Below, piece after piece: positions 41,287-60,434 of a DNA stretch of 64,000 bases (position 1 is its first letter; every line of letters starts with the position of its first letter). Location of the stretch: assembly GCA_016194705.1 (NCBI GenBank), contig JACQAZ010000015.1:4771-68770 (forward strand). Reading direction: 5' to 3'. The position numbers and the translations under genes were made by a program. This DNA comes from Elusimicrobiota bacterium. Lineage in GTDB: Bacteria > Elusimicrobiota > Elusimicrobia > UBA1565 > UBA9628. The notes under the pieces are model-generated. The model had not been told where the DNA came from and made no database searches. It saw only the letters and a program-made list of their open reading frames with translations.

Positions 41287-42063
41287 ATGAGCCTCGAACC
41301 GACGTTTCCGGAGCGGCGCGTCCTGCTGCGCTGCGCCCTTTCGTTTGTCGGCAAGTCCAGCCGCCTGATCCGCAGCAAGCTCGCCGCGGGCCCGCGCGTG
41401 CGCCTCAAGGACGACGGCAGCCCGGTCACCGACGCGGACTTGGCCGCGGAGCGCCTCCTGCGCCGTCTGATCGTTAGGCGCTTCCCTGATCACGGCATCC
41501 AGGGCGAGGAATTCCCCCCGGTCAGACCCCGGGCCGAATTCCAATGGTTCGTCGACCCGATCGACGGGACAATGAGCTTCACGCGCGAGATCCCGCTCTT
41601 CGGCACGATCGTCGCCCTGCATCATCTGGGAAGACCGCTCCTCGGCGTCATCGACCATCCCGCTCTGCAAGAGACAACGAGCGCGGCCGCGGGCCTGGGG
41701 GCCTTCCGCAACGGACGCAGGATCACCGTCTCCTCGGGTAACGCCTTGAAGAACGAGCTCGTCGCCGTCTGCTATCGCGACCAATTCCTGCGCTGCCGCA
41801 GGCAGGCCGCTTTCGACCGCCTGATGAGGTCGCACCCGAACGTGCGGACCTACGGAGACTGCTTCGGCCACATTTTGGCCGCCCGAGGCGCGGTCGGCGC
41901 GATGGTCGACGTCGACATCAATCCCTGGGACCTCGCCGCGACTCAAGTGATCATCGAAGAGGCCGGCGGCAAGTACGTAGTCCTCGCGCGGCGCGGCAAG
42001 CGCCGCGACATCCTCTTCGGCAAGCCCAAGGTCGTCGATCGGCTGCTGCCGATCCTCAAATGA
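41287..42063 (+). CDS. Inositol-monophosphatase-family phosphatase
   Basis: IMPase motif WFVDPIDGT plus downstream Asp motifs. Start MSLEPT is 2 nt after the permease stop. Confidence 0.75.
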   Translation: MSLEPTFPERRVLLRCALSFVGKSSRLIRSKLAAGPRVRLKDDGSPVTDADLAAERLLRRLIVRRFPDHGIQGEEFPPVRPRAEFQWFVDPIDGTMSFTREIPLFGTIVALHHLGRPLLGVIDHPALQETTSAAAGLGAFRNGRRITVSSGNALKNELVAVCYRDQFLRCRRQAAFDRLMRSHPNVRTYGDCFGHILAARGAVGAMVDVDINPWDLAATQVIIEEAGGKYVVLARRGKRRDILFGKPKVVDRLLPILK

Positions 42064-42959
42064 GGAACCCTCGGCTCGACGCCGCCATCGCCGATGTGCC
42101 CGGCTGGAGCAAGGAGCGGCTGAGGATCAACGTTCTCAAGGGCGGGCTCACGAACCGTAATTTCAAGATCGAGGCCGAGGACGGCGCATTCGTCCTCAAG
42201 CTGGACGGCAAGGAGACCGCGGTGCTGGGCATCGATCGGAAGAACGAGAACACCTGCGCCTCGATCGCCGCCGGCCTCGGCGTGGGTCCCCAGGTCTACC
42301 ATTACTTGCCGGCGGAACGCTCATTCGTCACCCGCTTCATCGAGGGCGAGCCCGTCTCGCCCCAGGCGGCCTCTCAGCCGGCCATGCTCAAGCGGATCGT
42401 GGCGTCTATCAAACGCGTGCACGAGGGCCCGGCCTTCCCGGGCCGGTTTTCGCCCTTCGAGACGGTCCGGCACTACCGCCGCGCCGCGTGGCTAAGGCGT
42501 GCGACTCCTCCCGAGGCGATCGACCTTGGGCTCATCGCGATGGGACGCATCGAGCAGATCCTGGGGCGGCGTCAAAACCCCAAGCCCTGCCACAACGACC
42601 TATTGGCGAGCAACTTCATCGACGACGGAAAGACCATCCGCATCGTCGACTGGGAGTACGCGGCGATGGGCGACCCCCTCTTCGATCTTGGGAATTTCGC
42701 CGTCAACCAGCAGCTCTCGGAGGACCGCTGCCGCCTGCTGCTGAAAGCCTATTTCGCCGAAGTCCGACCCGATGCCTTGGCGCGCCTTCAGCTTTATCGT
42801 CTCATGTCGGACCTGCGCGAAGCCCTCTGGGGTTTTCTCCAGTCGAGACTCTCCGACATAAAGTTCGATTTCGAGGACTACGGGATCAATCACCTCGACC
42901 GGTTCCTGCGCGGAGCGTCCGGCCCGCGCTTCGAGCGCTGGCTCAAGGAGGCGGCGTGA
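42060..42959 (+). CDS. Choline/ethanolamine-kinase / APH-family phosphotransferase
   Basis: Brenner-like motif HNDLLASNFI and the D-x-E motif IVDWEYA. 4-nt overlaps on both sides. Confidence 0.75.
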   Translation: MRNPRLDAAIADVPGWSKERLRINVLKGGLTNRNFKIEAEDGAFVLKLDGKETAVLGIDRKNENTCASIAAGLGVGPQVYHYLPAERSFVTRFIEGEPVSPQAASQPAMLKRIVASIKRVHEGPAFPGRFSPFETVRHYRRAAWLRRATPPEAIDLGLIAMGRIEQILGRRQNPKPCHNDLLASNFIDDGKTIRIVDWEYAAMGDPLFDLGNFAVNQQLSEDRCRLLLKAYFAEVRPDALARLQLYRLMSDLREALWGFLQSRLSDIKFDFEDYGINHLDRFLRGASGPRFERWLKEAA

Positions 42960-46117: not shown

Positions 46118-48346
46118 CTAGCGCCGCTTCTTGCCGCCGGAGCCGATCTTCAACTTGAAGGTGAAGGTCGAGCCCATCGGCTGGGCCGTGGCCAGCGAAT
46201 GCAGGAGGTCCAGCGCGACGCCTTGGCCGATCCAGGCCAGGAACAGGTAAAAATCCGGGCTGATGCCCGCGAAGGCCCCGTAGAAATGGTAAGCCGTCAT
46301 GGTCAGCGCCGCGGAGAGTCCCGCTCCGATGGTCTGCAGCCAATACCCCGTCTTGCCGTTGGAATTCATCCCGCGGAAGAAGTTGAAATGGTGCGCCAGG
46401 AAGAAGAAGGTCGCCACCGGAAAGTTCAGCGCGAATCCCGCGTAGGCGATGCCCGCTCCGACGAGACCCGGCACGAAATACGCCGTCGAGGCCGCCGTGC
46501 CCCCGGCCGTGTCCGCGAAGTAGGCGGCCATCAAGAGCCCAGCGAAGATCATCGCGACCGGGTGCGCCGTGAGCAGGCCCGCGGCGATCACGGCCGCGAT
46601 CGAACCTAGAGCCGCGAGCATTCCCAACGGACTGATCCCGCGCGCCTTCTTGGTCTTGAGGAACAGCCCCGCGACCCAGCCCACGCCGTAGAGCGCCGAG
46701 GCCAAAATGAAAGAACCTGTCAAGACTGCCAAGACAGGATGCGCCTGGGCATAAGGCGTCGCCTGGTCGACGAAGGACGCCAGGGACGCAGTCGAGGGCA
46801 GCGCAAACACGGCCAATGCAGGAGCCCTCGACCTCGCCGCAGACGGCGTCCTTCCCTCGAGCCGCTTGAGCGAGTCGATCGCGGCCGCGTTGGGGCCCTT
46901 GAGCCCCGCGAGCAGGTCCGCCGCGAACTTGTTGTGCATCCAGACGCTCAACTGGTCGAGGTGGGTGTCCATGCCGTGGAAGTCCGCGCCGTTGCCGACG
47001 AGGAGGTTGTACTTCTCTGCCCAGACCAGATACTTGGCCGCCCGCTCGTCGGCGGCCCGCTTGCCGTTGCCGGAGGTCGCGTGGCTCGGGCGGTAGACCT
47101 CGATGCCGTCCATGCCCGATTCAAGCATGGCCTCTACATTCTCGTCCTTCTGCGCGTCGGTCTTACCGCGCACGGTGTACGGGTGGTTGAGGAAGGCCTT
47201 GCCGCCGGCCGCGTGGATGGCCTCGACGACTTCGTCGGGCGTCGGGTCGGAGGGCACGCCGGGCGTGTTGAGGATGTCGCCTTGCAGGTAAGTCTTGAAG
47301 GCCTCGTCGACCTCGCTGATCAGGCCGCGTTTGAGCAAGGCGCGGGCGATGTGGGGAATCTCGATGGTCCCCCCCGCATCATGCTGGGAGAAGGCCTTGA
47401 CCTCGTCGATGGTCATCGAGATGCCCTTCTCTTTGAACTCGTCGAGCGCGTTGAGGTTGTCGATGATGCCTTGAGCCTTCTGGTGGCGCATGATGCGCAC
47501 GCGCTCCAAGAGGGCGACGAGCTTGGCGTTGGTGACGTCGACGTCGATGGCGTTGATGTGCGCGCCGCCCTTGGCGGTCATCTCGACGCCGGTGTGGAAC
47601 TCGATGGGGTCGGCCGGGTTGGCCGCGTTGAGCTCTTGAACCTTCTTCCAGGCGCGCAGGACGCCGGCGGAGGTGTCGTGGTCGGTCAGAGCGATCACGC
47701 GCGCGCCCTTCTTGTAGGCCGCCTCGATGACTGCCTCCGGGGTCATCGTCCCGTCGGAGTAGATGCTGTGCAGATGCAAAGTGATCCGCTCGGTCCAATC
47801 CCGTGGATTGCCTTCCCGCGCGGAGGGCACGTACTGCGCCAGCCGTCCCGGGATGCGGAAGGGAGCCAGGGCCAGCGGGGCCGGGATGCCGTCATGATGG
47901 TAGCTCTCGAAATGGGCGTAGGCCTGGTCCTCGTCGTCGTGATGGATGTGGACCACCGAGAGCTTCGGCGTCCCGTCGTAGATCTCGCTGACGGCCTCGC
48001 TGCCCAGGATGGAATCCTCGATCCCGATCGCGGGCAGGTTCAGCTCATCGGCCTGCTCGAGCCCCGCGCGCGCCTGAGGGCCTTGCCGACGCGGCGCTGG
48101 AGGCGCGAGGGCGCCTTCCCCCGGCGTCAAAGACGCTTCGGGCGCGGCGGGAACGGCTGGGATCGCGGCTTCAACGAGAGGGCTCAGCCCGGGCTGGACG
48201 GGGACCTGGGGCAGACCCTTGCCGGCTTCGACGGGCGCGACGAGAGGCTTGACTTCGCCCAGAGGCTTGACGACGTCTCCGCCGAGGGCGGGAACGCTCA
48301 GGAGGATCGAAAGCCAGAGGAAGGGGAGGCCAGATCTGTTTATCAT
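46118..48346 (-). CDS. PHP-domain phosphoesterase with signal peptide and C-terminal polytopic membrane domain
   Basis: Signal peptide MINRSGLPFLWLSILLSVPALG. PHP motifs HLHSIYSDG and ALTDHDTSAG. The C-terminal ~260 aa contains multiple TM helices. Confidence 0.7.
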   Translation of the reverse strand: MINRSGLPFLWLSILLSVPALGGDVVKPLGEVKPLVAPVEAGKGLPQVPVQPGLSPLVEAAIPAVPAAPEASLTPGEGALAPPAPRRQGPQARAGLEQADELNLPAIGIEDSILGSEAVSEIYDGTPKLSVVHIHHDDEDQAYAHFESYHHDGIPAPLALAPFRIPGRLAQYVPSAREGNPRDWTERITLHLHSIYSDGTMTPEAVIEAAYKKGARVIALTDHDTSAGVLRAWKKVQELNAANPADPIEFHTGVEMTAKGGAHINAIDVDVTNAKLVALLERVRIMRHQKAQGIIDNLNALDEFKEKGISMTIDEVKAFSQHDAGGTIEIPHIARALLKRGLISEVDEAFKTYLQGDILNTPGVPSDPTPDEVVEAIHAAGGKAFLNHPYTVRGKTDAQKDENVEAMLESGMDGIEVYRPSHATSGNGKRAADERAAKYLVWAEKYNLLVGNGADFHGMDTHLDQLSVWMHNKFAADLLAGLKGPNAAAIDSLKRLEGRTPSAARSRAPALAVFALPSTASLASFVDQATPYAQAHPVLAVLTGSFILASALYGVGWVAGLFLKTKKARGISPLGMLAALGSIAAVIAAGLLTAHPVAMIFAGLLMAAYFADTAGGTAASTAYFVPGLVGAGIAYAGFALNFPVATFFFLAHHFNFFRGMNSNGKTGYWLQTIGAGLSAALTMTAYHFYGAFAGISPDFYLFLAWIGQGVALDLLHSLATAQPMGSTFTFKLKIGSGGKKRR

Positions 48347-48711: not shown

Positions 48712-50385
48712 ATGCCCGCGCTCCTCTGCTCCCTGCTGGCCGCCTCGCTCCTCGCGGCTGAACCCGAACTCATCCTCGCTCACGGTCGCGTCTTCATCGC
48801 CCCGGGACGCTACGCCCAGGCCGTGGCGGTCGTCTCCAATCGCATCGAGTCGGTCGGCAGCGACGCGGCGGTGCTGGCGCTCAAAGGGCCGGCGACCCGC
48901 GTCGTCGATCTCAGGGGCCGCGCCGTGACGCCGGGTTTTCACGACAGCCACACCCATTTCCTCCGAGGCGCGCTCTCACTGACCCAGGTCGACCTCACCG
49001 GCGCCTCGGACATCCAGGAGATTCAGCGCAGGCTCGCCGATTACGCCGTCAAGAATGCGACGGCCGTCTGGATCATCGGGCGCGGCTGGGACCAGACCTC
49101 GTGGGCGCCTGGCGCCTATCCGACCCGCGCCGACATCGACGCCGTGGTTTCGACGAGGCCGGTCGCGCTGGCCGACGCGGACGGGCGCGCGCTGTGGCTC
49201 AATACCGAGGGGCTCAAGCGCGCAAGAATCACCTCGCGCACGCCCAGGTTCAACAGCGGGCAGTTCATCAAGGACGACAAGGGCGAACTCACGGGCCTCC
49301 TGCTGGACGAGGCCACCTCCCCGGCCATCGCCGCCATACCGGCCCCGTCGCGCGCCCAAAAGCTCGACGCCCTGCGCAGGGCACTGGCCTTGGCGCGAGA
49401 ATCCGGCGTAACGGCCGTCGAGTCTCTGCAGGGCCCGTTCGACGCTTTGCCATCCGAGCAGCTCGACCTGTGGAAAGAGCTCTACAAGAACGGCGACGCC
49501 ACGCTGCGCTATTTCCTCTACGGACGCCTCGAGGATCCCGGCGGGTTCTCCAAGCTCAGGAAAACGGTGCGCGACATCCCGAGGGATCGGCTCGATCTCA
49601 TCGGGGTCAAGGGCCTCGTCGACGGGACCTTCAAAGACCGCACGGCGGCGCTGCTGCAGCCCTACTTCGACGCCAATGCCAGCGGCGCGCTCAAGCACCA
49701 GACCTTCTCGCTCAACTCGATGATCCGCCGCGCCCACCAGGACGGCCTCCAAGTGGCGCTGCACTGCGTCGGCGACCGCGCGGTGCGGGCCGCGCTCGAC
49801 GCCTGCCAGAAATCTCAGGAGAGGGCGCGCCAGGAGGAACTGGTCCTGCCGCCCTACCCGTGCAAGCTCGAGCACGTCGAAGACGTCGACGCGAAGGACC
49901 TGCCGCGTTTCGCCGGCCTCCACGCTGTCGCCTCGATGCAGCCGAGCCGCATGATCTTCGATGATGAAGAACGAAACTACTACCCCAATAGGCTCGGCTC
50001 CCGCGTGCAGCGCAGCTTCGCCTGGAAGAGCCTGGAGGACGCCGGGGCGCTGGTGAGCTTCGGCACGGACTGGCCCGCGCTGCCGCTGGCGCCGCGCGTC
50101 GGGCTGTTCGCCGCCGCGACGAGGCGGCACCGCAACGGCAAGCCGGAGGGCGGCTGGATTCCCGCGGAAAAAATCTCGCTCGAGTCGGCCGTCGCGCACT
50201 ACACGGCCGACCCGGCCCGGGCCATCGGCCGAGACGATGCGATGGGCCGGGTCAAGCCGGGACAGCTTGCCGATCTCGTCGTCTTCGACCGGGATCTCTT
50301 CTCGACCGCGGGCTTGGATTTGCTCAAGGTGCAGGTCGACATGACGATCTTCGACGGCAAGATCGTCTACGAGCGAAAGCCCTAA
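48712..50385 (+). CDS. Amidohydrolase-family metal-dependent hydrolase (Amidohydro_3-like)
   Basis: Signal peptide. Metal-binding motifs GFHDSHTHF and …ALHCVGD…. Confidence 0.75.
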   Translation: MPALLCSLLAASLLAAEPELILAHGRVFIAPGRYAQAVAVVSNRIESVGSDAAVLALKGPATRVVDLRGRAVTPGFHDSHTHFLRGALSLTQVDLTGASDIQEIQRRLADYAVKNATAVWIIGRGWDQTSWAPGAYPTRADIDAVVSTRPVALADADGRALWLNTEGLKRARITSRTPRFNSGQFIKDDKGELTGLLLDEATSPAIAAIPAPSRAQKLDALRRALALARESGVTAVESLQGPFDALPSEQLDLWKELYKNGDATLRYFLYGRLEDPGGFSKLRKTVRDIPRDRLDLIGVKGLVDGTFKDRTAALLQPYFDANASGALKHQTFSLNSMIRRAHQDGLQVALHCVGDRAVRAALDACQKSQERARQEELVLPPYPCKLEHVEDVDAKDLPRFAGLHAVASMQPSRMIFDDEERNYYPNRLGSRVQRSFAWKSLEDAGALVSFGTDWPALPLAPRVGLFAAATRRHRNGKPEGGWIPAEKISLESAVAHYTADPARAIGRDDAMGRVKPGQLADLVVFDRDLFSTAGLDLLKVQVDMTIFDGKIVYERKP

Positions 50386-51449
50386 CGGCGTCTCTGGCGC
50401 CGTTCGTCTCTCGGCTGCTGACGCTGCTGCTGCTGTTGGCGCCGCTGTCCTTGCTGCTCCTCTCGCTGACGCTGTCTCTCCCGCCCAAATTCTTCGCGCC
50501 GCTTCGCTTTCTCCTGTTGACGCTGCTGACGCCCCTCGCTCTCACCTTGCTCCTGCGGGGGCCGCAGATGCTGGCGGCGCTTCGGGGCCGGGCCCCCCTC
50601 TTGGTTCTGAAGGCGCTTTTGGCGGCCGCGCCGCAGGAGGTTTTGCCTCGCCCGCAAATGCCCGTATTTTCTGCCCTGCATCTGCCGCCTCACGCCCTTG
50701 AGGTGGCCGCCTCGCACCGTCTGTTTGCTCCGCAAGCGCTGCCGCCATTCTCGGCGCAGCTTCGCGTCGCGCCGAGTCCAGTTCTTCGAGACCTCGCCCG
50801 CCCGATGCCGGACGAACTCGAACCTCCGCCGGCTTCCCGCGAAATGGCGCAGAGTCGCGGGCTGCCCCAGCGCCTTGTCCTTGTGCACCTCGAGCTCCTG
50901 GCCTGGCCCCAGCTGCGCGGACTCCTTTCCCCCGACGGCCGTGACGGCGACCTGGCCCTCGTCGAAGACGCCGACGCGGGCCGGCTGGTCGTCGCCCTCC
51001 TGGGAGACCGCCAGTTCCGTGCCGCGCACGGCGGCCACGGCTGTGGGGGTGTGGAACTCCATGCTCTGTCCGTCGAGCAAATGCTTGATCTTGGCCAGGA
51101 TCGAGCCGATGCCCACATGAAACTCGGTATGCTCCGGGGCCAGCGAATTGACGATGAAATCCGAGTTGGGCGAGATCGAGATCACGGATTCGCCGTCGAG
51201 CGTGAACTCCGCCGTGCCGTCCTCGCCGGTGCGGATCATGTCGCCGTCCTCGATGGTCGCGTCCGCCTCGGCCGGGATGAACTCGCCCTCCTGATGGTCG
51301 TGCAGGTGCAGGTAGACCGTACCCTCGACCGAGGTGAGGCGCGCCTCGCGGTCCGCGTCTTCGGGCTGGTCCTGCGTAGAGGCCGACAGAGAACCCGCCG
51401 CGATGAGCGCGGACACGGCGGCGGCCGTCCAACGGCGTTTGGTTCCCAT
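50382..51449 (-). CDS. FecR-domain protein with extreme Arg/Gln-rich C-terminal tail
   Basis: Start at MGTKRRWTAAAVSALIAAGSL (signal anchor). FecR-like β-rich region. The last ~150 aa are R/Q/E low complexity encoded by CAG/CGS repeats. Confidence 0.6.
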   Translation of the reverse strand: MGTKRRWTAAAVSALIAAGSLSASTQDQPEDADREARLTSVEGTVYLHLHDHQEGEFIPAEADATIEDGDMIRTGEDGTAEFTLDGESVISISPNSDFIVNSLAPEHTEFHVGIGSILAKIKHLLDGQSMEFHTPTAVAAVRGTELAVSQEGDDQPARVGVFDEGQVAVTAVGGKESAQLGPGQELEVHKDKALGQPATLRHFAGSRRRFEFVRHRAGEVSKNWTRRDAKLRREWRQRLRSKQTVRGGHLKGVRRQMQGRKYGHLRARQNLLRRGRQKRLQNQEGGPAPKRRQHLRPPQEQGESEGRQQRQQEKAKRREEFGRERQRQREEQQGQRRQQQQQRQQPRDERRQRRR

Positions 51450-51603
51450 GGCGAGCTTCCCGGAGTATAACAAGTCTTTGTTACATTCACAAGTAGGCGG
51501 CCGTCGGTCCCATGGTCCCACTGCGGAGTAGTCCCAATGTGTCCCCCTTGTGGCCCTATGGACCTATAGGGTCTAGACCCAGCGGACGCTATAATGGAAC
51601 GCA

Positions 51604-53316
51604 ATGGAAAATATCACGCGCGACATCAGAAGCATCGCCGCTGTCTTGTTCTTCTTTTCACCGGCCGTCCCGTCCCGGGCCGTGGATTTCAACGCCGCAC
51701 CCAAGGGAGAGACCCGCGCGCTGCCGGCGCCCGCGCCGATCCCCCGCACGCTCGCCGGTTCGCTGGAGCTCAAGACCCAGGACCTCGCCGCGGGACTGCC
51801 GGCCGGGATCACTCTCGAGGACGGACAAAGGCTCGTGTCCCCCGGGACCGTGCCCCAAGCCGCGCCGGGCTCTGCGTCCGCGAGTCCGAGCGTGCCGCAA
51901 GCGCCCTCTCTCGGTGAGCCGATCGCGCCCGCACAAGCCGGCGCTCCCATCGCCGACGCCGACGTGCGCGGCAAGACGCTCCTGCTCGTCGGCACGCGCG
52001 GCTCGCGTCCCTTCATCATCGAGGAGGCCGTGCGCGTGGCCAACGAGCTCGGCTTGAACCTCGTGCTGCTCGACAAGGAGGAGAACCGGAAGAACTCCGA
52101 GTCCCTGGTCCCCGAGACCGATTTCTTCTCCGCGCCCATCGACCGCCGCGACGACAGGTCGATGAAGTCGATCGTCGCGCAGGTCCAGCAGCTCGCCTCC
52201 GAGCGCAAGATCGACTACGTCATGGCCTTCCGCAGCCACCACGCCAAGCTCGTCGGCAAGATCGTCGACGCGACCGGCATCTCGGGAGTCCCAGGGAAGG
52301 TGGCGCTCACCGCCGAGGACAAGGCCCGCACGCGCAAGGCCCTCAACGCCGCGCCCGACCAGTTCGTCCCCTACCGGGAGGTCAAGACCGCCGACGAGGT
52401 CCGCGAGTTCTACAGGCAATACGGCGGCTCGGGCAAGTTCGTCATGAAGTCCAAGCTCGGCGAGAACAGCCGCTTCGTGGAGCTCGACATCGATTCTGAG
52501 GAGAAGCTCGTTTCCGCATTCACCAAGATGGACGCGGCCCTGCGCGCCGAGGCGCGCAAGAAGGAGTCGAGCGACACGATCTTCAACCGCTTCCCCGGGA
52601 TCATGGTCGAGAAGATGCTGCAGAAGGCGCCGGGCACCGTCGAGGCCTCGGTCGAGATGGTCGTCCAGAACGGCAAGGTCAAGTTCGCCATGGTCTCCGA
52701 CACGCACGGCATCGGCCCCAAGGGCGAGCTCGCGGGCGGCAGCATGACCTTCCCCTCTCAGATGAGCGAGCCCGTCAGCCAGGCCCTGATCGCGGCCTCG
52801 GCCCGGGCCCTGGAGATCATCGGGCTGCGCAACGGCAACGCGCGCATCGACATCATGATGACGCCCGACGGCCCCAAAGTCATCGAGATCAACCCGTTCC
52901 TCGGGGGCGCGGCCATCTACACCGCGATCAAGCTCGTGACCGGGATCAGCCTCGTGGAATGGGGGATTCGCGCGACGCTCGGCCTGTCCCTGCCCGGCGG
53001 TCCCGCGCACAAGACGGTCGTCGACTACCGCTTCGCGGCCTCGCAGCACACGGGCTCCATCATCGCGCTCGAGGGCGTCGAGCAGGCCAAGGCCCTGCCG
53101 GGCGTGGCGCACGTCCAGCTGCTCGCCGGACGCGGCGATTCGGTCGCCGCCCCCATCGAGAACGGCTTCGAGGAGTGGGCCGAGGTCATGGGCACCGGAC
53201 CGACCTTCGAGGCGGCCCGGCGCGCGAGCATCGCGGCGCTGGCGAAGATCAAGGCGGTGGTCGTCGTCGACCAGACCGCCGATTACCTGCAGCCCAAGCC
53301 CGAGGAAAGGAAGTAG
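51604..53316 (+). CDS. ATP-grasp-fold enzyme with predicted signal peptide and Pro/Ala-rich linker
   Basis: Signal-like N-terminus MENITRDIRSIAAVLFFFSPAVPSRA. Pre-ATP-grasp plus ATP-grasp core (…IEINPFLGGA…). Confidence 0.7.
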   Translation: MENITRDIRSIAAVLFFFSPAVPSRAVDFNAAPKGETRALPAPAPIPRTLAGSLELKTQDLAAGLPAGITLEDGQRLVSPGTVPQAAPGSASASPSVPQAPSLGEPIAPAQAGAPIADADVRGKTLLLVGTRGSRPFIIEEAVRVANELGLNLVLLDKEENRKNSESLVPETDFFSAPIDRRDDRSMKSIVAQVQQLASERKIDYVMAFRSHHAKLVGKIVDATGISGVPGKVALTAEDKARTRKALNAAPDQFVPYREVKTADEVREFYRQYGGSGKFVMKSKLGENSRFVELDIDSEEKLVSAFTKMDAALRAEARKKESSDTIFNRFPGIMVEKMLQKAPGTVEASVEMVVQNGKVKFAMVSDTHGIGPKGELAGGSMTFPSQMSEPVSQALIAASARALEIIGLRNGNARIDIMMTPDGPKVIEINPFLGGAAIYTAIKLVTGISLVEWGIRATLGLSLPGGPAHKTVVDYRFAASQHTGSIIALEGVEQAKALPGVAHVQLLAGRGDSVAAPIENGFEEWAEVMGTGPTFEAARRASIAALAKIKAVVVVDQTADYLQPKPEERK

Positions 53317-53336
53317 GCTAACCGGCCCCATCGTCC

Positions 53337-54665
53337 GTGGCCTCCATGCTGCCCTTTCTCCTCTGCGCCGCCGCAGCGCTCGCGGGCCCTGTCGTCGAAC
53401 GACCCGAGGACCCTCGGCCCGTCGCGGAGCTTCGGGCCGCGCCGACCCTACCCGCGAACTTTGAGGCGGGCAGGACTCTCACGCCGGATTCCGCGTTTCT
53501 CAAACTGGGGCTCATCGTTCCCGTCATCGTCGAGACCGGCCCGCTTCCCGCACCCTCGACGCTCCCCGGCGGGACCCCTCAGGCGAAGGGCCATGACGCG
53601 GATCCCGCCGTTCCCGCTTCGCGCCGCGAGGCCGCGTTGGCTCTTGAGGAGCCCGCGGTCTCGTTCGACGGCGCGCGGCATATCGCCGCCCGCGCGGCTC
53701 TGCTGACGCAGCGCGCCGCGACCTTGCCGGCGCACCTGTGGCCCTTCTCGAATTTGGCCAAGAAGCTCTCGCACGGCGAGGGGCTCGCGGGCCTGACCCC
53801 CTCCGGCGCGGTCGCGGCCGCGCGAAAAATCCGATCCGATCATCGCGCCCCCGCCGTGATCGGCCGGCTGTCCTGGGAACTGCACGACGTCTGGTCGGTG
53901 CGCGGCGCCGTGAGATCGTACGCGAGGCTCATCGACGCCGTGGCCGAGGCGAAGTCCAAGGATCCGAAGGTCGACGTCTCCATCTCGCTCGACGTCGAGT
54001 CCCTGGGGGCCCAGCTCGACGGGCTGAGCTTCCCTGAGAAGACCCGCATCGCCATCGCCAACGCCACCGCGCTAGCGCGTCGGGCCCGCGACCGCGGCAT
54101 TGCCATCGAGTTCGACATGGGGGCCTCGGCTGTGATGCCTCTGCTGCTCGACGTCGCGCGTTCCGTGGTCCGGAAGCTGGGCACGCCCGCGCGCCTGGCC
54201 CTCTCGGCGCGTTATTTGGCCTCCGAGGAAGCGCTTCGGAATTGGTCCGCGCTGGCGCGCGAGACGGGGCTCAGGCTCGGCGTGCGGCTGGTCAAGGGCT
54301 CGTTCATCGAAGGCGATAAGCCCGGAACCCTCTATTTTCGGCGTGCGCTCCTGGAGCAATACAAGAAGCTGATCACGCAGGCGCTGGAACAGGGCGACGC
54401 GCTCGACGTCGCGGTCGCCACCCACAACGAGGAGATCTGGGAACACGCTGAGGCCCAATCAAGACGGCTCGGCGCGCCTTATTCTCTCCAGGTCATCCGC
54501 GGGGTCAATCGCAAGCTGCAAAGGAGGATGCGCGCTTCCGGGAACATCCCCCGGGAGTACGTCTCGTACGGCGTCGACACTCCCGTGATGGCGCTGATGG
54601 AATGGTGGACCAACTGGCGGCAAAAGCGCGCTCTGCGAAGACGCGTCGACGGCGAACTCGACTAG
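53337..54665 (+). CDS. Proline-dehydrogenase-family (PRODH-like) protein with predicted signal peptide
   Basis: Motifs RLGVRLVKGSFIEGD, VATHNEE and EYVSYGVD resemble the PRODH β8α8 domain. Signal-like N-terminus MASMLPFLLCAAAALAGP. Confidence 0.6.
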   Translation: MASMLPFLLCAAAALAGPVVERPEDPRPVAELRAAPTLPANFEAGRTLTPDSAFLKLGLIVPVIVETGPLPAPSTLPGGTPQAKGHDADPAVPASRREAALALEEPAVSFDGARHIAARAALLTQRAATLPAHLWPFSNLAKKLSHGEGLAGLTPSGAVAAARKIRSDHRAPAVIGRLSWELHDVWSVRGAVRSYARLIDAVAEAKSKDPKVDVSISLDVESLGAQLDGLSFPEKTRIAIANATALARRARDRGIAIEFDMGASAVMPLLLDVARSVVRKLGTPARLALSARYLASEEALRNWSALARETGLRLGVRLVKGSFIEGDKPGTLYFRRALLEQYKKLITQALEQGDALDVAVATHNEEIWEHAEAQSRRLGAPYSLQVIRGVNRKLQRRMRASGNIPREYVSYGVDTPVMALMEWWTNWRQKRALRRRVDGELD

Positions 54666-54704
54666 GCTTGCGCGGGGGCGGCCGGGCTGTTATAATCACG
54701 GCTG

Positions 54705-55526
54705 ATGAAGGCCGCCAAGCTCACCCAAGAGAACCTCGATGACATCGACCAGCACACCCGCGACAGGATCGGGATCAGCACGCTCGAGCGCTACACGGGC
54801 AGTTCGGCTTCCGAGTTCCAGCCGTACGTCCTGCTGACCAATTTCAAGCTCTACGTCCGAGCCTTCGCCGAAATCCAGAAAACGCCCGTCCACAAAGGCT
54901 CCGTCATGCGGGCATGCCATTCCCCCAAGGACGGCATCTCCATCATCGATTTCAGCGTCGGGTCTCCGACCGCGGCGCTGGTCGTCGACCTGCTGTCCTT
55001 CATCAAGCCCAAGGCCGTGATCATGCTCGGCCTTTGCGGAGGCTTGCGGGAGGAGTACGAGGTCGGCGACTTCTTCAATCCGGTGGCGGCCATCCGCAAC
55101 GAGGGAACTTCGGCGAGCTACATGCCGCCGCAATGCCCCGCGCTGAGCTCGTTCGTGCTCCAGCGCATAGCCTGCGAGGAGCTCGAGAAGCGCAGACTCA
55201 AGTACCATACCGGGGTCATCCACACCACCAACGTCCGCTTCTGGGAGTTCAACGAGGAGTTCAAGGCCAGCCTGGCCGCCGAGCGCGCTCAAGCCATCGA
55301 CATGGAATGCGCCACTCTCTTCATCGTCGGCTACGCGCGGCGCGTGCCGATGGGGGCCTTGATGCTGATCTCGGACGTGCCCCTAAAGAAAGGCGGCATC
55401 AAGACGGCCGACTCGGCGAAGAAGCTATTCGAGAAATACACCGGACTGCACATCGACATCGGCATCGCCGCGCTCAAGACCGCCCAGGCCCGGGAGAAGG
55501 CCGGGGGCCTCGACTTCCGCTTCTAG
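54705..55526 (+). CDS. Nucleoside phosphorylase/nucleosidase, PNP_UDP_1 family
   Basis: Conserved AIDMECATLF and phosphate-binding loop region (GLCGG). Confidence 0.7.
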   Translation: MKAAKLTQENLDDIDQHTRDRIGISTLERYTGSSASEFQPYVLLTNFKLYVRAFAEIQKTPVHKGSVMRACHSPKDGISIIDFSVGSPTAALVVDLLSFIKPKAVIMLGLCGGLREEYEVGDFFNPVAAIRNEGTSASYMPPQCPALSSFVLQRIACEELEKRRLKYHTGVIHTTNVRFWEFNEEFKASLAAERAQAIDMECATLFIVGYARRVPMGALMLISDVPLKKGGIKTADSAKKLFEKYTGLHIDIGIAALKTAQAREKAGGLDFRF

Positions 55527-55527
55527 G

Positions 55528-56655
55528 TCACCTCTCGAGGTCGACCGGCGCGGCGGGGTCCTTGCGGTCGGGCTGGCCCACCACCCAATAGGGGAGGACC
55601 GGATCGTAGTAGGTGCAGCGGCGGCAGACGTCGGGATGGTCTCCCCGCGCCTGACGGTCCAAGAGTTCCCGCAAGGCCGGACCGCTCAGGATTTCGCTCA
55701 AGCTCTGCTTGCCGAGGTCTCCGATGATCAAAGTCGCCTCGACGTCGCGCGCCGCGCAGGCGTTGACGCGCCCGTCGGCCAGGACCACGGGGCCCGTCAG
55801 GGGCCAATGGCAGGGGCCCTTCTTGACGGGCATGGGCCGGGCCACGAGGCCCGCGTCGGTGAGCTCGCGTTCCTTAATATGCCCCGCCCAAGAGTCGAAG
55901 GCCCCCATCCAGGTCATCTCGATGACTCCGTCCTTCTTGGCCGCCAAGAAATAGTCCCAGAGCTCGCCCTTGTTGTTGTCGCGGGGCGTGCGCAGGTTGA
56001 TCTGCAGCCCGAGCGTCGAGCCCGAAGCGCGCTTGGCCTCGATGGCGGCCTTGATGTTGGGCGCCGCGGCGTCGAATTTGTCGACCCCGAAGACCTTGAG
56101 GTAGGTCTGCCGGTCGAAGCCGCCGAAGGAGATGTAGACGCGCAGCTTGGCGCCGTACTTGAGCAGCTTCTGCGAGAGCTCGGGCTTCATGCCGATGGCG
56201 TTCGTGAAAAAGTGAAAGCGCCGAAGCTCGGGTTTGGAAGCCAGGTAGTCCAACCTCTCGAAGATCTTGCCGTCGACGAACGGATCGCCGACGATCGGCG
56301 TGAGGTCGACCTCGGTGCCGCCCATCGCCGCGTACTGGTCGATGACCGACTTGAAGAGCTCCATGGGCATGACTTTCTTGGGCCGCTGCATCTCCGGGTA
56401 GGCGCAGAACACGCACTCGGCGTTGCAGATGTTGGTGCCCTCGATGTAGAGGGAATGCGGCCAGGCGCCGATCCTCACGATGCGGTCCAGGCCCGGCACC
56501 CTCATGAGGGCGTAATTGAGCAAGGTCGTCCCCCACGAATATTTGGCCGCGACCCATGAATAGGCTCGGGGCCCGGCGACCGCGCGGACGGTTTTCTTAG
56601 CCGCGTCGCGGATCGGGTGCCACCAGGAGGCGCTCGGGATGGTGCGGGTCGGCAT
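55528..56655 (-). CDS. Radical SAM protein with C-terminal Cys-rich (SPASM-like) region
   Basis: rSAM motif TNICNAECVFC (CxxxCxxC) and C-terminal Cys residues (CHWP…C…CRRC). Confidence 0.75.
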   Translation of the reverse strand: MPTRTIPSASWWHPIRDAAKKTVRAVAGPRAYSWVAAKYSWGTTLLNYALMRVPGLDRIVRIGAWPHSLYIEGTNICNAECVFCAYPEMQRPKKVMPMELFKSVIDQYAAMGGTEVDLTPIVGDPFVDGKIFERLDYLASKPELRRFHFFTNAIGMKPELSQKLLKYGAKLRVYISFGGFDRQTYLKVFGVDKFDAAAPNIKAAIEAKRASGSTLGLQINLRTPRDNNKGELWDYFLAAKKDGVIEMTWMGAFDSWAGHIKERELTDAGLVARPMPVKKGPCHWPLTGPVVLADGRVNACAARDVEATLIIGDLGKQSLSEILSGPALRELLDRQARGDHPDVCRRCTYYDPVLPYWVVGQPDRKDPAAPVDLER

Positions 56656-56694
56656 GAGGTCTCGCGTGTAGGATACCAGCGGCGGCGGGGCCTG

Positions 56695-57705
56695 TCAAGT
56701 ATCGGGAAGGATGCGCCCGCGCAGCGAGACGAGCCAGCGCTTGGTACGGTAGAGCTCGTGGCTCCGGATGTAGACCGCGGGAGAGACCAGCGCCAAGAGC
56801 AAGGTCGAGCAGCGGAAAAAGCCGAGGCTCGTGAGGCCGTGCCGCCTGAAGAGCTGCCGCCAGAGCGCGAAGGCCTCGCCGCGGCGCCCTTCGTGCATCG
56901 CGACCAGAATCTCGCGGCGGTTGACGTCGAGATCCTCCAGAAACTTGTACATGGGCGAGAACTCGAGCCCCCGAGCCTTCAATTTGGGAACGAGATAGCC
57001 GTCGAAAGTCCTTTGCAGCTCCAGGCCCATGCGCAGCTTCTTGGGGCTCAGGTAGCCCTCGGCCCAATTGTTCTGGCCGTGAATGCGGTGATAGCCCTTC
57101 GCGACGGAAAGATTCACGGCATCGCTGACAAATAGCCCGTGGACGGTCACGTAGATGTCGGCGGTGTAGAAGACGTCGAGCGGCAGAGGACCGACCTCGG
57201 CGAGCACCGAGCGCCGCAGGGCCACGCCGCTGGCCGCCGCCAGGGCCGCGCCGCCGGCCAGGAAGTCCTTGAGCGTGTAGCGGGGCGGCCAGCCCGGAAG
57301 GACGGTGTCCAGCGCCCGCCCCTGGGCGTCGACGTCGATGAGCGGGTGCTGGACGATGCCGACGGAAGGATCTTCGAAGCAGGCCGCCGCGACCTTCATC
57401 TTGTCGCGGTCCCAATAATCGTCGGAGTCGAGAAACATCACGATCTCGCCCCGGGCCGCCTGTATGCCCGCGTTGAAGGCCCCGGCTTGGCCCGTGTTTT
57501 TCTGGGCGATGAGCTTGATGCGGTCCCCGAATCCCTGCGCGACCTTGAGCGAGTCGTCGGTCGAGCCGTCGTCGACCAGGATGACCTCCTTCTTTGAGTC
57601 CGGGTAGTCCTGGCCGAGCGCGCTGTCGAGGCACTGCTTGAGAAAGCGGCCGTAGTTGTAGTTGTCGATGACGACCGAGACCAGCGGCAAGAACGCCTCG
57701 TTCAC
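56695..57705 (-). CDS. Family-2 glycosyltransferase
   Basis: VSVVIDNYNYGRFL and the DxD context FLDSDD. Confidence 0.8.
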   Translation of the reverse strand: MNEAFLPLVSVVIDNYNYGRFLKQCLDSALGQDYPDSKKEVILVDDGSTDDSLKVAQGFGDRIKLIAQKNTGQAGAFNAGIQAARGEIVMFLDSDDYWDRDKMKVAAACFEDPSVGIVQHPLIDVDAQGRALDTVLPGWPPRYTLKDFLAGGAALAAASGVALRRSVLAEVGPLPLDVFYTADIYVTVHGLFVSDAVNLSVAKGYHRIHGQNNWAEGYLSPKKLRMGLELQRTFDGYLVPKLKARGLEFSPMYKFLEDLDVNRREILVAMHEGRRGEAFALWRQLFRRHGLTSLGFFRCSTLLLALVSPAVYIRSHELYRTKRWLVSLRGRILPDT

Positions 57706-57732: not shown

Positions 57733-58233
57733 CTAGGGCGCCGGCGCGTAGCCGTAGCGCAGCCAGTGCAGACGGGCGCTCGCGCTGGCGAGGTCGACGA
57801 CGAAGAGGTTGTCGTACTCCCGGTCCCCGAGTTCCTCTTTCGGACCGTCCGAGACGCCCAACGACTTCAGAAGATCGGGGATCGTGTCCGAGTGCGCCAC
57901 CACGAGCACGTCGTCGCCCGCGTGGTCGGCTCGCAGAGTCTTGGCCAGCGCCGCCGTTTCCTCGGCTTTGACCTGGATCGGCTTTAGCTTGTGCCCCGCG
58001 GCGGCGGGCTCGGCGGTCTGGCGGGTGCGCTGGAACTGCGTCACATAGACCGACTGCAAGGGGACCCGGCTCAAATATCTGGCCAAATCCGCCGCTCGTT
58101 TGCGGCCCGCGGCGGTCAGCGGCGGGTCGTCGGTCTTCTTCGTCGCGACTTTCTCCGCGTGGCGCACGACATAGATCGCGGCATCCGACGGCAGCGAAGA
58201 CAATGCCGCGGCCAGAACCAGGATCAGTCTCAT
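57733..58233 (-). CDS. Histidine-phosphatase-superfamily (SixA/PGAM-like) secreted protein
   Basis: Signal peptide. Catalytic RHAEK motif and VAHSD. Confidence 0.7.
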   Translation of the reverse strand: MRLILVLAAALSSLPSDAAIYVVRHAEKVATKKTDDPPLTAAGRKRAADLARYLSRVPLQSVYVTQFQRTRQTAEPAAAGHKLKPIQVKAEETAALAKTLRADHAGDDVLVVAHSDTIPDLLKSLGVSDGPKEELGDREYDNLFVVDLASASARLHWLRYGYAPAP

Positions 58234-58234
58234 G

Positions 58235-60337
58235 CTATTTGTTCTGTGGAGGAGCGACGCGGCGCGAGAGCAGGAAATACCCGGCCGCGGTCAAGGTGCA
58301 GTAGATCCCGAGGCCGATAAAGGCCGCGGAGCCGAAGAGCTGGAACAGGATGCCCCAGACCATGAAGTTGACGACATAGGAAAGGTTGGTCAAGGTCCGG
58401 TCGGCGCCCACGACATAGGCCTTGGTCCTCTTGGGCATGCGGTCGAGCAGCAAGGTGTCGAGCTGGGTCAGCGCGACCTGGCCCGTGTAGCCGATCAGGA
58501 TCAAAGCAGGGGACACCGCGAAAAGCGGCCAGATCAGCCACGAGGCGACATGGGCCTTGGCGAGCAGCACTCCCCCGCCGATGGCGGCCAGCGCGATCCA
58601 TTTCAGCGACTTCAGAAGAGTCGTCTTGGACGCGAACTGGCCCTTGCGCCAAGCCCATATCCCGAGGGCGGCCAGTCCGACGAGTCCCGCGATGCCGATG
58701 AAGGGCGCGGCCGCCATGACGGGCCCGGCCACCGTGCCGATCGAGACCTGCGAGACGAACAGCCAGCCGCTCAGCATGGTGAGCGCCGCCCAGCGCAGGG
58801 CCTTGGCGGCGCTGGCCGACATGAGCTTGGACTGCGCCGCGGGCCGCTCCTTCTCGGGCAGGCTCTCGGTGCTCTCCTCGATGCTGCGCGAGACCGCCGC
58901 GTTGGTCAGCGCCGCCCCGTTGGCGCCCATCCCCAGCAAGCCGATCAATGCCGAGGCCGCGGCGGCCGCCATCCCCATGTTCCCGTGCGCGAAGAAGACG
59001 CCGAAGGCCGTGCCCGTGACGTAATAAAGCAGATAGACGAAGTTGTTGATCAGCAGGCGCGCGAGGAACAGAGGCCTCATCTCCGGCCGGAACAAGCGCT
59101 TGAAGCCGGCGAACAACGGAACCTTGCGCATGCGCCCCGAAAGCATCTGCGGCAGGCTGCGCAGGGCGAACGCGAGAGCCGCGGCCCCGGCGAACAAGAA
59201 GGGTGCGGCGTAGATCACGGCGCCGAAGCCCTTGGTCGCGATGAGCAGGCCCGTGATCATCGTCGTGAACACGGTGCCGTACTCGACGAAGTCGCGCAGC
59301 GTGCCGAAGCGGTTCGAGGCGACCGGGGAATCCTTGAACCACTCTCCCTGCAAAGTCCGTTCGGCCACGCGGCCCATCGAATGCACGAAATAGTCGAGGC
59401 TGAAAAGCGCGATCAGGGGCGCGATCGGCATCACGCCGTGGTGGGAGTGGAAGATGTAAGCGACGCCGGCCCAGATGAACGCGCGAGAGGCCAGCACGGT
59501 CCGGTAGACCCGGGCCAGCCCGACGCGCTGCACGAGCCGCCCGCCGAGGAAGCTGCCGATCGCGTAGGCGAGGTAGCTCGTCGAGGCCAGGCCCGCCAGC
59601 GCGATGAAGCCGTTCTTGAGCGGGTCCGTCATTTGAGGGACCGCAAGGGCCAGCGATTCGACGGCGAGTTGGATCAACAGGAAGGTCGAGAAGAAGCCCA
59701 AGACCTTGCCGGACAGGACCGAGAGCTGCTCTTTCTTCGAGGGAGCGGGAGGCCCCTTCGGGTCCTCGGCTGGAGCCCGGCTTGCCTTCTCAAGCGACGG
59801 CGCCGCGGCGACGCCGCCGGTAATCTCGGCCGGCCCGGATTTGCGCACGAACCCGCGCTCTTCGGCGTGCTCCCAGACGCGCTCCTCGAGTCCGCCCTTG
59901 TTCTCGCGTCCCAACCCGCCGAATTCGCCTTTCCCGGCGGGTAGAGCCTCTGTCAGGCCCGCGGCTCCGGGAGTCTCAAGGCCCGGAGCGATGCCCTCCG
60001 GAGAGGCTCCCGGGACGACGGGGGCTCCGATCTGGACCCCCGCGGGATTGACGAGCGCGGTCGGAAGGGGCGTCTGCTGCGACGCTGGACCGCTCGTCGG
60101 CGCTTCGCTCCCGGGCACCGCGAGGGTCCCGCCGACCCCGGCCGTCGCGAGAGGATCGAGGTTCGTCGCGCCGAGCTCGACGCGCGGGAGCCCTCCGGCG
60201 GGATTGGCGGGCGCGGGGCGTGGCGCCGCCGAAGGGGCTGGGGCCGGCTTCTCGACGAGGCCCCCGCCGGCGAGCGCGGGCTCAGCGGCCAAAGCCAGGC
60301 TCAGCAGAGCTGCCAGCGCGCGGCTAAGAATCCTCAC
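58235..60337 (-). CDS. MFS transporter with ~230-aa Pro/Ala-rich N-terminal extension
   Basis: Twelve TM helices in the C-terminal 470 aa. N-terminus carries a signal-like segment and a PA-rich low-complexity region. Confidence 0.7.
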   Translation of the reverse strand: MRILSRALAALLSLALAAEPALAGGGLVEKPAPAPSAAPRPAPANPAGGLPRVELGATNLDPLATAGVGGTLAVPGSEAPTSGPASQQTPLPTALVNPAGVQIGAPVVPGASPEGIAPGLETPGAAGLTEALPAGKGEFGGLGRENKGGLEERVWEHAEERGFVRKSGPAEITGGVAAAPSLEKASRAPAEDPKGPPAPSKKEQLSVLSGKVLGFFSTFLLIQLAVESLALAVPQMTDPLKNGFIALAGLASTSYLAYAIGSFLGGRLVQRVGLARVYRTVLASRAFIWAGVAYIFHSHHGVMPIAPLIALFSLDYFVHSMGRVAERTLQGEWFKDSPVASNRFGTLRDFVEYGTVFTTMITGLLIATKGFGAVIYAAPFLFAGAAALAFALRSLPQMLSGRMRKVPLFAGFKRLFRPEMRPLFLARLLINNFVYLLYYVTGTAFGVFFAHGNMGMAAAAASALIGLLGMGANGAALTNAAVSRSIEESTESLPEKERPAAQSKLMSASAAKALRWAALTMLSGWLFVSQVSIGTVAGPVMAAAPFIGIAGLVGLAALGIWAWRKGQFASKTTLLKSLKWIALAAIGGGVLLAKAHVASWLIWPLFAVSPALILIGYTGQVALTQLDTLLLDRMPKRTKAYVVGADRTLTNLSYVVNFMVWGILFQLFGSAAFIGLGIYCTLTAAGYFLLSRRVAPPQNK

Positions 60338-60434
60338 GAATAGATTCTATCGCACCGGGAGACGGCCGAAGTGGGTCCTTCGACTGCACAGGAGGGAGTC
60401 AATGGGCCCGCGCCGACGGTCCCCTTCGTCCTAC

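Follow-up and report, generated by a model that had tools for sequence, protein, structure and literature searches.

A putative split ligase–transporter system with signal-peptide-like N-termini, juxtaposed with unrelated genes in an Elusimicrobiota genome

What is an ATP-dependent ligase doing behind a signal peptide, and do the enzymes encoded around it serve a single pathway? Both questions are raised by a 64,000-nucleotide stretch of DNA from an Elusimicrobiota bacterium (GenBank assembly GCA_016194705.1, contig JACQAZ010000015.1, positions 4,771 to 68,770; G+C ~66%), hereafter the window, in which an ATP-grasp enzyme of 570 amino acids (aa; 51604-53316, plus strand) is followed, after gaps of 20 and 39 nt, by a proline dehydrogenase (PRODH)-like protein and an AMP-nucleosidase (AMN)-like protein. 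A radical S-adenosylmethionine (rSAM) enzyme and a family 2 glycosyltransferase (GT2) are encoded convergently on the minus strand, with the stop codons of the AMN-like and rSAM genes 1 nt apart. A sequence-only reading of positions 51450-57705 had described these genes as one uncharacterised small-molecule or peptide-modification locus and had found the hydrophobic N-termini of the first two proteins odd. The gene order, strands and gaps were all borne out, Pfam and NCBIfam agree with the domain calls (ATP-grasp, PRODH, PNP, radical SAM/SPASM and GT2, with PNP refined to the short AMP-nucleosidase family), and the signal-like N-termini are both real and odd, being conserved in homologues. The interpretation put forward here, which is judged to stand an even chance of being right, is instead that the locus is a juxtaposition rather than a pathway, and that its core is an Elusimicrobiota-specific machine, composed of an L-amino-acid ligase (LAL)-type enzyme and a major facilitator superfamily (MFS) transporter, that is split into two genes in this genome. 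An exact look-up of the window proteins returned no record and comparisons were therefore made through the contigs of homologues, among which a groundwater Elusimicrobia metagenome-assembled genome encodes proteins with 100% identity to those of the window (P0001, P0028 and P0070).

The ATP-grasp protein comprises a signal-peptide-like segment (residues 1-26, MENITRDIRSIAAVLFFFSPAVPSRA), a Pro/Ala-rich linker (27-118) and a catalytic domain (119-570), which opens at 'VRGKTLLLVG' after ~90 Pro/Ala-rich residues, and it contains no cysteine. Pfam assigns it LAL_C2 (39.1 bits, cutoff 29.4) and ATP-grasp_3 (24.8 bits, cutoff 23.2), and matches in a PDB profile search were restricted to BacD, BL00235 and RizA. 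The same three enzymes were the best Foldseek matches (target TM-scores 0.71-0.82) to an AlphaFold model of P0022, a homologue in which the ligase is fused to a transporter (mean predicted local distance difference test score, pLDDT, 79.5; ligase domain mostly 80-95). The ATP/Mg columns K240, K278, K282, E336, E428 and N430 are invariant across 15 diverse family members, and D416 is nearly so. Judged by its predicted fold and its ATP/Mg residues, the enzyme is a member of the L-amino-acid-ligase branch, from which it departs at one arginine position considered below, and the activity that defines this branch, the ATP-dependent formation of α-dipeptides from unprotected L-amino acids, may also be its own. 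An exhaustive profile search recovered 72 representatives at E ≤ 1e-30, many of them 1,000-1,270 aa long; the distant members are mostly unnamed metagenome proteins, and all named ones are from Elusimicrobiota. A literature search for Elusimicrobia ATP-grasp enzymes, LAL-MFS fusions and periplasmic ATP-grasp enzymes found nothing relevant.

The partner of the ligase is revealed by its relatives. A scan of one genome per species identified 25 ATP-grasp loci, all in Elusimicrobiota, and in 21 of these the ATP-grasp and MFS domains lie in one reading frame, with the MFS downstream, in proteins of ~1,030-1,050 aa. Elsewhere the two genes are convergent and adjacent (L005 and L027) or 5 kb apart (L004), and an MFS is present at every ATP-grasp locus with enough sequence. 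Protein searches recovered further fused proteins (P0018-22, 24, 26; P0190, 192, 194, 195, 203), as well as one in the reverse order of signal peptide, linker, MFS and ATP-grasp (P0221). The window holds the split form, in which the ATP-grasp gene and a gene for an MFS-type transporter of 700 aa (58235-60337, minus strand) each head one of two convergent gene strings. The window MFS shares 36-66% identity with the MFS halves of fused proteins (tblastn), and scores 27.6 bits against Pfam MFS_1 compared with 43.8 bits for the fused orthologue in L024 (cutoff 33.4). It has a signal-peptide-like N-terminus of its own, a ~200-aa Pro/Ala/Gly linker and 14 transmembrane (TM) segments, of which 12 are canonical and two are inserted between TM9 and TM10 (residues ~545-610). 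The extra pair is joined by a Lys/Arg-rich loop, RKGQFASKTTLLKSLK, and the N-in/C-in topology is kept. A branch 1 histidine phosphatase that bears a signal peptide (57733-58233, minus strand; Pfam His_Phos_1, 68.5 bits) starts 1 nt past the MFS stop codon, and in four loci (L008, L011, L025 and L028) the next gene after the fused one encodes a homologue. These two genes stand before the GT2-rSAM pair on the minus strand and are functionally linked to the ligase, yet they lie outside the interval covered by the earlier reading. Since ATP-grasp and MFS are fused or adjacent in nearly every genome that has them, this comparison of sequences identifies ATP-grasp plus MFS, with or without the histidine phosphatase, as the conserved functional unit.

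The two halves also share upstream elements. A TATAAT box (51590-51595) lies 8 nt before the ATG of the ATP-grasp gene and recurs in L001, a relative with 70% identity, and the regulatory region of the gene (51500-51603) includes the boxes GGTCCCAC (51514-51521) and AGTCCCAATG (51530-51539) and the palindrome GGACCTATAGGGTC (51560-51573). L001 (9850-10000) has the same box order and the same distance from -10 box to ATG; boxes related to these were also seen in L005, L006 and L002. The region upstream of the MFS gene (60344-60380, minus strand) holds the box AAGGACCCAC (60371-60380) and a -10-like TAGAAT (60344-60349) 6 nt before the GTG start, and the same GTCGAAGGWCCCAC box is found upstream of fused genes in other genomes. 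Both halves (51500-51603 and 60344-60400) and the fused genes (L007-L026) are preceded by GGWCCCAC, G-N-CCCA(A/T)TG and GGGACC/GGTCCC inverted repeats, and some of the changes in these repeats, as in L008, are compensatory. Exact GGWCCCAC occurs at four sites in the 64-kb window, two of them upstream of the two halves, a count that is not above chance in the window as a whole, so that only the position before both halves is suggestive. The shared boxes suggest co-regulation of the two halves, and the set of elements is probably the operator of some regulator. The elements in 51500-51603 overlap palindromes already noted in the sequence-only reading.

The -10 boxes stand 6-9 nt before the start codons in the window, L001 and L002, and with this spacing the mRNAs of the ATP-grasp, MFS and AMN-like genes look leaderless, beginning at the annotated starts. 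The AMN-like gene, which is preceded by a -10-like TATAAT (54691-54696, plus strand) 8 nt before its ATG, probably has its own leaderless promoter. An in-frame 'conserved peptide' seen ahead of the fused genes prompted the idea of a riboswitch or leader RNA, which was rejected on account of the -10-like box 7-8 nt from the ATG; Rfam gave no family match in the equivalent upstream regions of six related loci. The region upstream of the fused genes is accordingly best read, from its sequence pattern, as the operator/promoter DNA of a leaderless gene and not as RNA.

The signal-like N-terminus of the ligase is part of a wider module. N-terminally complete ATP-grasp homologues, including 47 representatives from the exhaustive search, carry a signal-peptide-like segment followed by a ~100-aa non-conserved linker. 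In sequence pattern, the module has a Lys/Arg start, a hydrophobic core of 11-17 aa, a Pro-containing c-region and A-x-A, and in the fused clade a Gln-x-x-Arg after the A-x-A is conserved ('LAPWPAWA↓QTARV'). The linker that follows is 80-200 aa long, disordered and often wholly uncharged (pLDDT ~30 in the P0022 model). The same module occurs on the stand-alone MFS, on PRODH-like proteins ('SAQTARLSAVSAP') and on a LonC-like protease. The latter, of ~1,170 aa (L024 4409-7963, minus strand), has the same kind of signal peptide ('SAPMSAWS↓QTQ') with an uncharged linker, combines Lon_C with a LonB-type AAA domain whose Walker A (GPDGSGRE) and Walker B (LVLDF) are degenerate, and contains 0-1 cysteines; its gene precedes the fused one by 1-2 kb in 10 loci (L006, L008, L010, L012, L014-L016, L018, L024 and L026). 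A 742-aa PHP-domain protein in the window (46118-48346, minus strand), also found near the ATP-grasp gene in L001, likewise combines a signal peptide with a Pro/Val-rich linker (MINRSGLPFLWLSILLSVPALGG...).

The sequence-only reading had offered two explanations for these N-termini: mispredicted starts, or signal anchors with cytoplasmic catalytic domains. The first does not hold, since homologues share the segments and the ATG is immediately preceded by a -10 box. The second survives in part. Hydrophobic cores of 11-13 aa, or 11-17 aa across the module as a whole, are too short for a transmembrane anchor, which argues, together with the absence of cysteine, against a simple signal-anchor. A search of the linker for a hidden second TM segment by hydropathy and a Hessa-type scale gave no convincing candidate, and the linker of the window protein carries charges. 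In the ATP-grasp family, no conserved twin arginine (Tat), lipobox Cys (lipoprotein) or G↓FTLIE (prepilin) motif was found. In the AlphaFold model of P0022, pLDDT is <50 over both the N-terminal helix (residues 22-39) and the linker, whose position is uninformative.

A cytoplasmic ligase domain is nevertheless favoured, since the fusions act as a topology marker. The MFS half of the fused proteins has twelve helices, visible as TM helices in the AlphaFold model, with the motif A 'GGRWVDKFGxxRxYR' in loop 2-3, after TM2. Across 18 fusions, the mean number of Lys plus Arg is 33.6 on the N-terminal face, on which both termini lie, compared with 0.3 on the opposite face. On these sequence features, the MFS half is a canonical MFS with N-in topology, although its subfamily could not be assigned: there was no PDB sequence match at E ≤ 10 and no useful NCBIfam match. 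The ligase is fused, in either order, to the Lys/Arg-rich face of the MFS, and the positive-inside rule places the termini inside, which makes a cytoplasmic location the favoured prediction; only a short connecting segment joins the fused ligase to the first TM helix.

Several observations weigh against this picture. The N-termini match the pattern of cleavable Sec signals, with A-x-A followed by Gln akin to the Q-rule, which has been described for exported proteins (PMC10653852). The 47 signal-peptide-bearing family members contain 5 cysteines in 36,269 residues, compared with 39 in 3,510 residues (1.1%) for seven relatives without a signal peptide. Other proteins of the same loci contain 1.0% cysteine without and 0.28% with a signal peptide, and membrane proteins contain 0.4%, against ~0.01-0.02% in the MFS half. 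The avoidance of cysteine is an accepted hallmark of exported proteins (PMC2823432), and a cytoplasmic location leaves it unexplained. In addition, neighbourhoods within the fused clade may be conserved through common descent and not for functional reasons, and neither the substrate, the product nor the direction of transport can be read from the sequence. The position aligned to Arg328 of BacD, the conserved Arg that follows the Mg-binding motif in such ligases, is Phe in the window clade. The motif after the Mg site is 'NPF(L/M)GG' in the window ('NPFLGG') and the fused clade, while the distant relatives P0194, P0199, P0201 and P0204 retain 'NARMGG' with a conserved Arg, where BacD aligns 'ESAARFAG'. 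The Phe hints at a non-standard acceptor substrate.

As far as sequence can tell, there is thus a genuine conflict: the signal peptide and cysteine exclusion point to export, whereas the fusion to the MFS and the intactness of the ATP site point to the cytoplasm. Three reconciliations are possible. The module may form a shallow re-entrant anchor by analogy with PglC, whose N-terminal membrane helix is monotopic and re-entrant (PMC6133551), though the hydrophobic stretch here is much shorter. It may be a cleavable signal that serves membrane targeting alone, or the cysteine-free design may exist for chemical reasons, with a thiol-reactive product.

In the mechanism proposed for the split ligase–transporter machine, the ligase would, at the expense of ATP, link an amino acid with another substrate, amino or acid, and the resulting dipeptide-like amide would be handed directly to the MFS for export, as in a fused counterpart of BacD/BacE; import followed by ligation would be the less likely direction. 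The N-terminal module would act as a membrane-targeting or tethering device, a secreted histidine phosphatase would often be attached to the transporter gene, and the PRODH-like, AMN-like, GT2 and rSAM genes would be lineage-specific passengers. The product could be a phylum-typical exported amide or dipeptide serving as a signal, antimetabolite or envelope precursor.

The most serious competitor, though an improbable one, is that the ligase is truly exported, with the signal peptide cleaved and the ATP-grasp domain active in the periplasm or at the cell surface, and that the same holds for the PRODH-like and LonC-like proteins, with ATP or an activated substrate supplied from inside, perhaps via the MFS. 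The canonical signal peptides with A-x-A↓Q sites fit this scenario, as do the disordered Ala/Ser/Pro linkers (pLDDT ~30), of a kind seen on tethered exported proteins, and the extreme cysteine exclusion, which tracks the signal peptide across the family. Neighbouring genes also encode secreted proteins (histidine phosphatase, Amidohydro_3, CN_hydrolase and FecR-like), and the LonC-like protease, with the same module and degenerate Walker motifs, could work ATP-free outside the cell. However, in all three architectures, in which signal peptide and linker precede ATP-grasp and MFS, MFS and ATP-grasp, or the MFS alone, the module is continuous with the motif-A face of the MFS, which carries 33.6 of 33.9 Lys plus Arg, and for export to occur the 12-TM MFS would have to be inverted and ~34 positive charges translocated. 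The ATP/Mg ligands are invariant, the twin-arginine motif for export in the folded state is absent, and no periplasmic source of ATP is known. In its strongest form, that the whole Elusimicrobiota ATP-grasp clade is Sec-exported and works outside the cytoplasm with intact ATP/Mg sites, the proposal is just as improbable; if true, it would mean either that ATP or an activated substrate is delivered to the periplasm or that an MFS-fold domain is inserted upside down. A milder version is that 'signal peptide - Q-x-x-R - uncharged linker' constitutes a new sorting or tethering signal that would hold cytoplasmic enzymes at an envelope site.

Slightly less probable again is a refinement of the ligase–exporter reading in which the dipeptide made and exported is a thiol-reactive 'Trojan horse' and the absence of cysteine is self-protection. 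LALs make Trojan-horse dipeptides of anticapsin, tabtoxinine-beta-lactam and fumaramoyl-diaminopropionate (fumaramoyl-DAP), and characterised LAL clusters carry MFS exporters. The nearest solved enzymes, BacD and RizA, are antibiotic LALs, and cysteine is also excluded from the membrane-embedded MFS, where periplasmic oxidation offers no explanation. However, no conserved genes for warhead biosynthesis lie nearby, and the unrelated PRODH-like and LonC-like proteins are cysteine-free as well, so that the trait follows the N-terminal module and not the chemistry.

Among the remaining genes of the interval is that of the PRODH-like protein (442 aa; 53337-54665, plus strand), a divergent member of the PRODH fold. 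It matches Pfam Pro_dh (66.5 bits, cutoff 27) and, in a PDB profile search, Thermus PRODH 2EKG (E = 4e-30), and it keeps the barrel signature and the RLVKG, DM and YV.YG motifs of PRODH/PutA, but the NCBIfam PRODH equivalog NF045947 scores 50.3 bits against a cutoff of 500. PRODH binds the carboxylate of proline through an Arg-Arg pair (Thermus R288/R289; E. coli PutA R555/R556), and this pair and the neighbouring Tyr are lacking here: where 2EKG has 'YVPYGRDWYPYLTRRIAER', the aligned stretch of the window protein is 'YVSYGVDTPVMALMEWWTN' and the family consensus MGLxELxTN, and a 'TRRIAER' segment stands opposite the family consensus 'gltelytn'. Unlike PRODH/PutA, it also has the Gln of 'QxYL' replaced, an N-terminal signal peptide (window protein: MASMLPFLLCAAAALAG) or lipobox with a linker of ~100 aa, and a cysteine-free mature part, all its cysteines lying at positions 10-28. 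The mature domain has no cysteine in 16 of 16 members, whereas the canonical PRODH P0069 has three. The 42 matches, from Elusimicrobia, Kofleriaceae and 'Proteobacteria', include homologues in Elusimicrobia and Myxococcota that retain a signal-peptide-like or lipobox-like N-terminus, and the gene contexts are unrelated in all nine loci examined. The protein is probably not a proline dehydrogenase, and its family is probably exported and separately distributed, having lost the proline-binding arginines. A lipobox-like LLLCG or LVMCG is found only in the Kofleriaceae PRODH-like proteins P0046 and P0050, which suggests that these are lipoprotein versions of the family in Myxococcota.

The AMN-like protein (273 aa; 54705-55526, plus strand; Pfam PNP_UDP_1) belongs to the short form of the AMP-nucleosidase family, with 347 bits against NF005500 (cutoff 264) and 333 bits against TIGR01721 (cutoff 307), the match covering residues 16-265. 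It has no signal peptide and 5 cysteines, consistent with a cytoplasmic protein.

The rSAM enzyme (375 aa; 55528-56655, minus strand; Pfam Radical_SAM and SPASM) and the GT2 (336 aa; 56695-57705, minus strand; Pfam Glycos_transf_2, 107 bits) form a pair of their own. The rSAM has only four C-terminal cysteines (282, 300, 344 and 347), short of a full SPASM motif, and scores far below the cutoffs of all NCBIfam peptide-maturase models. Its 284 homologues come from Elusimicrobia, cyanobacteria and Planctomycetes. In the related loci L033 and L034, a GT2 orthologue (58% identity) lies immediately upstream of an rSAM orthologue (62%), and the gap of 38 nt between them in L033 (6973-9131) compares with 39 nt in the window. 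In L033 the rSAM gene is flanked by GT2 and GT4 genes, and the cluster around the pair encodes, besides that GT4, a Wzx-type flippase, a methyltransferase, a polysaccharide deacetylase and another GT2; in cyanobacteria the two are fused into single GT2-rSAM proteins (P0171 and Calothrix P0186). Because the pair recurs inside a polysaccharide cluster and as fusions, it is assigned from its sequence contexts to a glycan module, a portable, uncharacterised glycan-modification pair and not a peptide maturase.

A single small-molecule or ribosomally synthesised and post-translationally modified peptide (RiPP)-like locus in 51450-57705, with all enzymes acting on a common substrate, is very improbable. 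The genes are tightly packed (gaps of 20 and 39 nt, convergent stops 1 nt apart), and no promoter-like site was called in the gaps between ligase and PRODH-like gene (20 nt) or between histidine phosphatase and GT2 (27 nt), making co-transcription plausible in both cases. However, none of the linkages is conserved. All nine window proteins were compared by tblastn with 28 ATP-grasp loci (the 25 scanned plus further contigs), and PRODH-like neighbourhoods were examined by tblastn in eight loci and from the gene table of a ninth, with flanks of 7-10 kb and up to 10 kb per side; in these flanks, the PRODH-like, AMN-like, rSAM and GT2 genes were never near an ATP-grasp gene, nor was the reverse seen, and linkage is equally unconserved in the rSAM loci. 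The proposed co-occurrence of an ATP-grasp/PRODH-like/PNP trio fails with it, even though the hydrophobic N-termini are kept in the orthologues. The GT2-rSAM pair is independent, occurring in polysaccharide clusters and as fusions, and the AMN-like and rSAM genes have promoter-like sites of their own. A precursor-peptide open reading frame, for which 54666-54704 and 51450-51603 had been proposed, was not found: the former is merely 39 nt long, and the latter is promoter/operator DNA with no free-standing small reading frame. The weakest alternative, that the N-terminal segments are annotation artefacts with true starts at the catalytic domains, can be set aside: third-position G+C in the extensions is 0.79-0.80 compared with 0.85-0.96 in the rest of the gene and later starts are called in some database entries (e.g. 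P0019 and P0013), but the lower value still fits the frame, the segment and its A-x-A↓Q-x-x-R are conserved across relatives of 40-50% identity, the reading frame is open in all loci, a -10 box immediately precedes the annotated start in several genomes, and the window protein has no in-frame ATG near the start of its catalytic domain.

Divergent from the ATP-grasp gene lies a gene for an exported FecR-domain protein (50382-51449, minus strand; full reading frame 50382-51521), with a probable start at the ATG at 51449 (MGTKRRW...), a signal peptide (MGTKRRWTAAAVSALIAAGSLSAS) and a promoter-like site at 51492-51464 on the minus strand. It had been called a FecR-like regulator, and the FecR domain stands (residues 95-187; 38.7 bits), being the sole Pfam match, whereas the regulatory role is unproven: the protein has a signal peptide, its single match to an anti-sigma family reaches 26.7 bits against a cutoff of 200, and an N-terminal cytoplasmic anti-sigma domain with a TM segment was not found with Pfam or NCBIfam. 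The NCBIfam matches are all sub-threshold, the best being Leptospira surface proteins of the Lsa33/LipL45 type. An orthologue with 62% identity occupies the same position in L001 and L004. The C-terminal third (50382-50800, minus strand) is a ~130-aa tail with hardly any residues other than Arg, Gln, Glu and Lys (…RQQRQQEKAKRREEFGRERQRQREEQQGQRRQQQQQRQQPRDERRQRRR), an unusual composition in an exported protein. Beyond it, an Amidohydro_3 protein with a signal peptide (48712-50385, plus strand; Pfam Amidohydro_3, 303 bits) has homologues upstream of the ATP-grasp gene in L001 and L004 (64% identity) and L005 (49%). In nine loci (L007, L014-L018, L020, L023 and L024, e.g. L024 8715-9566, minus strand), the divergent neighbour of the fused gene is instead a CN_hydrolase, a nitrilase-superfamily amidase with a signal peptide, in whose place the window and its closest relatives have the secreted Amidohydro_3 nearby. 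A periplasmic amidase beside an amide-forming ligase and exporter may be meaningful. Further upstream in the window (42060-45394, plus strand), a choline/aminoglycoside-kinase-like reading frame and then a large sarcosine/dimethylglycine-oxidase-like one were recognised by eye and are apparently unrelated.

Pairs of LAL and MFS exporter are known from a few antibiotic pathways, whereas here the two form one protein of ~1,040 aa across a poorly studied phylum. The fusion provides a natural topology marker, and it sets against each other three predictors that can usually be relied on, namely the signal peptide, the exclusion of cysteine and the positive-inside rule. A possible outcome is a new targeting or tethering module that signal-peptide predictors misread across Elusimicrobiota proteomes; a less likely one is ATP-dependent chemistry outside the cytoplasm. 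The locus also carries a caution for annotation, as it should not be read as a biosynthetic gene cluster and the PRODH-like family should not be annotated as proline dehydrogenase.

Among known systems, PglC offers a resemblance to the N-terminal module only. In PglC, N-terminal Lys/Arg precede a short hydrophobic helix that is interrupted by Ser-Pro or by a branched residue and Pro, with a cytoplasmic catalytic domain thereafter, and comparable break motifs occur in the window protein (FFFSPAVP) and the fused clade (VLAPWPAW); prediction programs treat such segments as membrane-spanning. However, the hydrophobic stretch is ~12 aa here against ~26 aa in PglC, with hardly any hydrophobic return arm, and the long disordered linker, the A-x-A↓Q and the cysteine exclusion are not PglC features. 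For the covalent union of a transporter with a cytoplasmic ATP-dependent enzyme, the closest parallels are LplT-Aas, which joins a lysophospholipid transporter to an ATP-using acyltransferase/acyl-ACP (acyl carrier protein) synthetase, and the synthase-flippase MprF, in which an aminoacyl-transferring enzyme is coupled to a flippase and acts on the transported molecule. Here, in contrast, the enzyme is an ATP-grasp, the MFS half has no relation detectable in NCBIfam or the PDB, and a lipid substrate has no support. The nearest counterparts of the system as a whole are the BacD/BacE-type systems, which likewise pair a ligase with an MFS transporter. BacD, BL00235 and RizA share the fold, the domain set including LAL_C2 and the ATP/Mg ligands with the window enzyme and are its best PDB matches in sequence and structure, although identity to BacD is only ~16% and the equivalent of R328 is Phe in the window clade. 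Unlike the BacD-type ligases, family members carry a signal-peptide-like segment and a long disordered linker and contain essentially no cysteine, and unlike BacD-type clusters, their loci have no warhead or other pathway genes linked. Whereas BacD and BacE of bacilysin producers are separate ligase and exporter proteins, ligase and MFS are a single polypeptide in most of the genomes compared here, in a LAL-MFS family that is confined to Elusimicrobiota as far as named records go.

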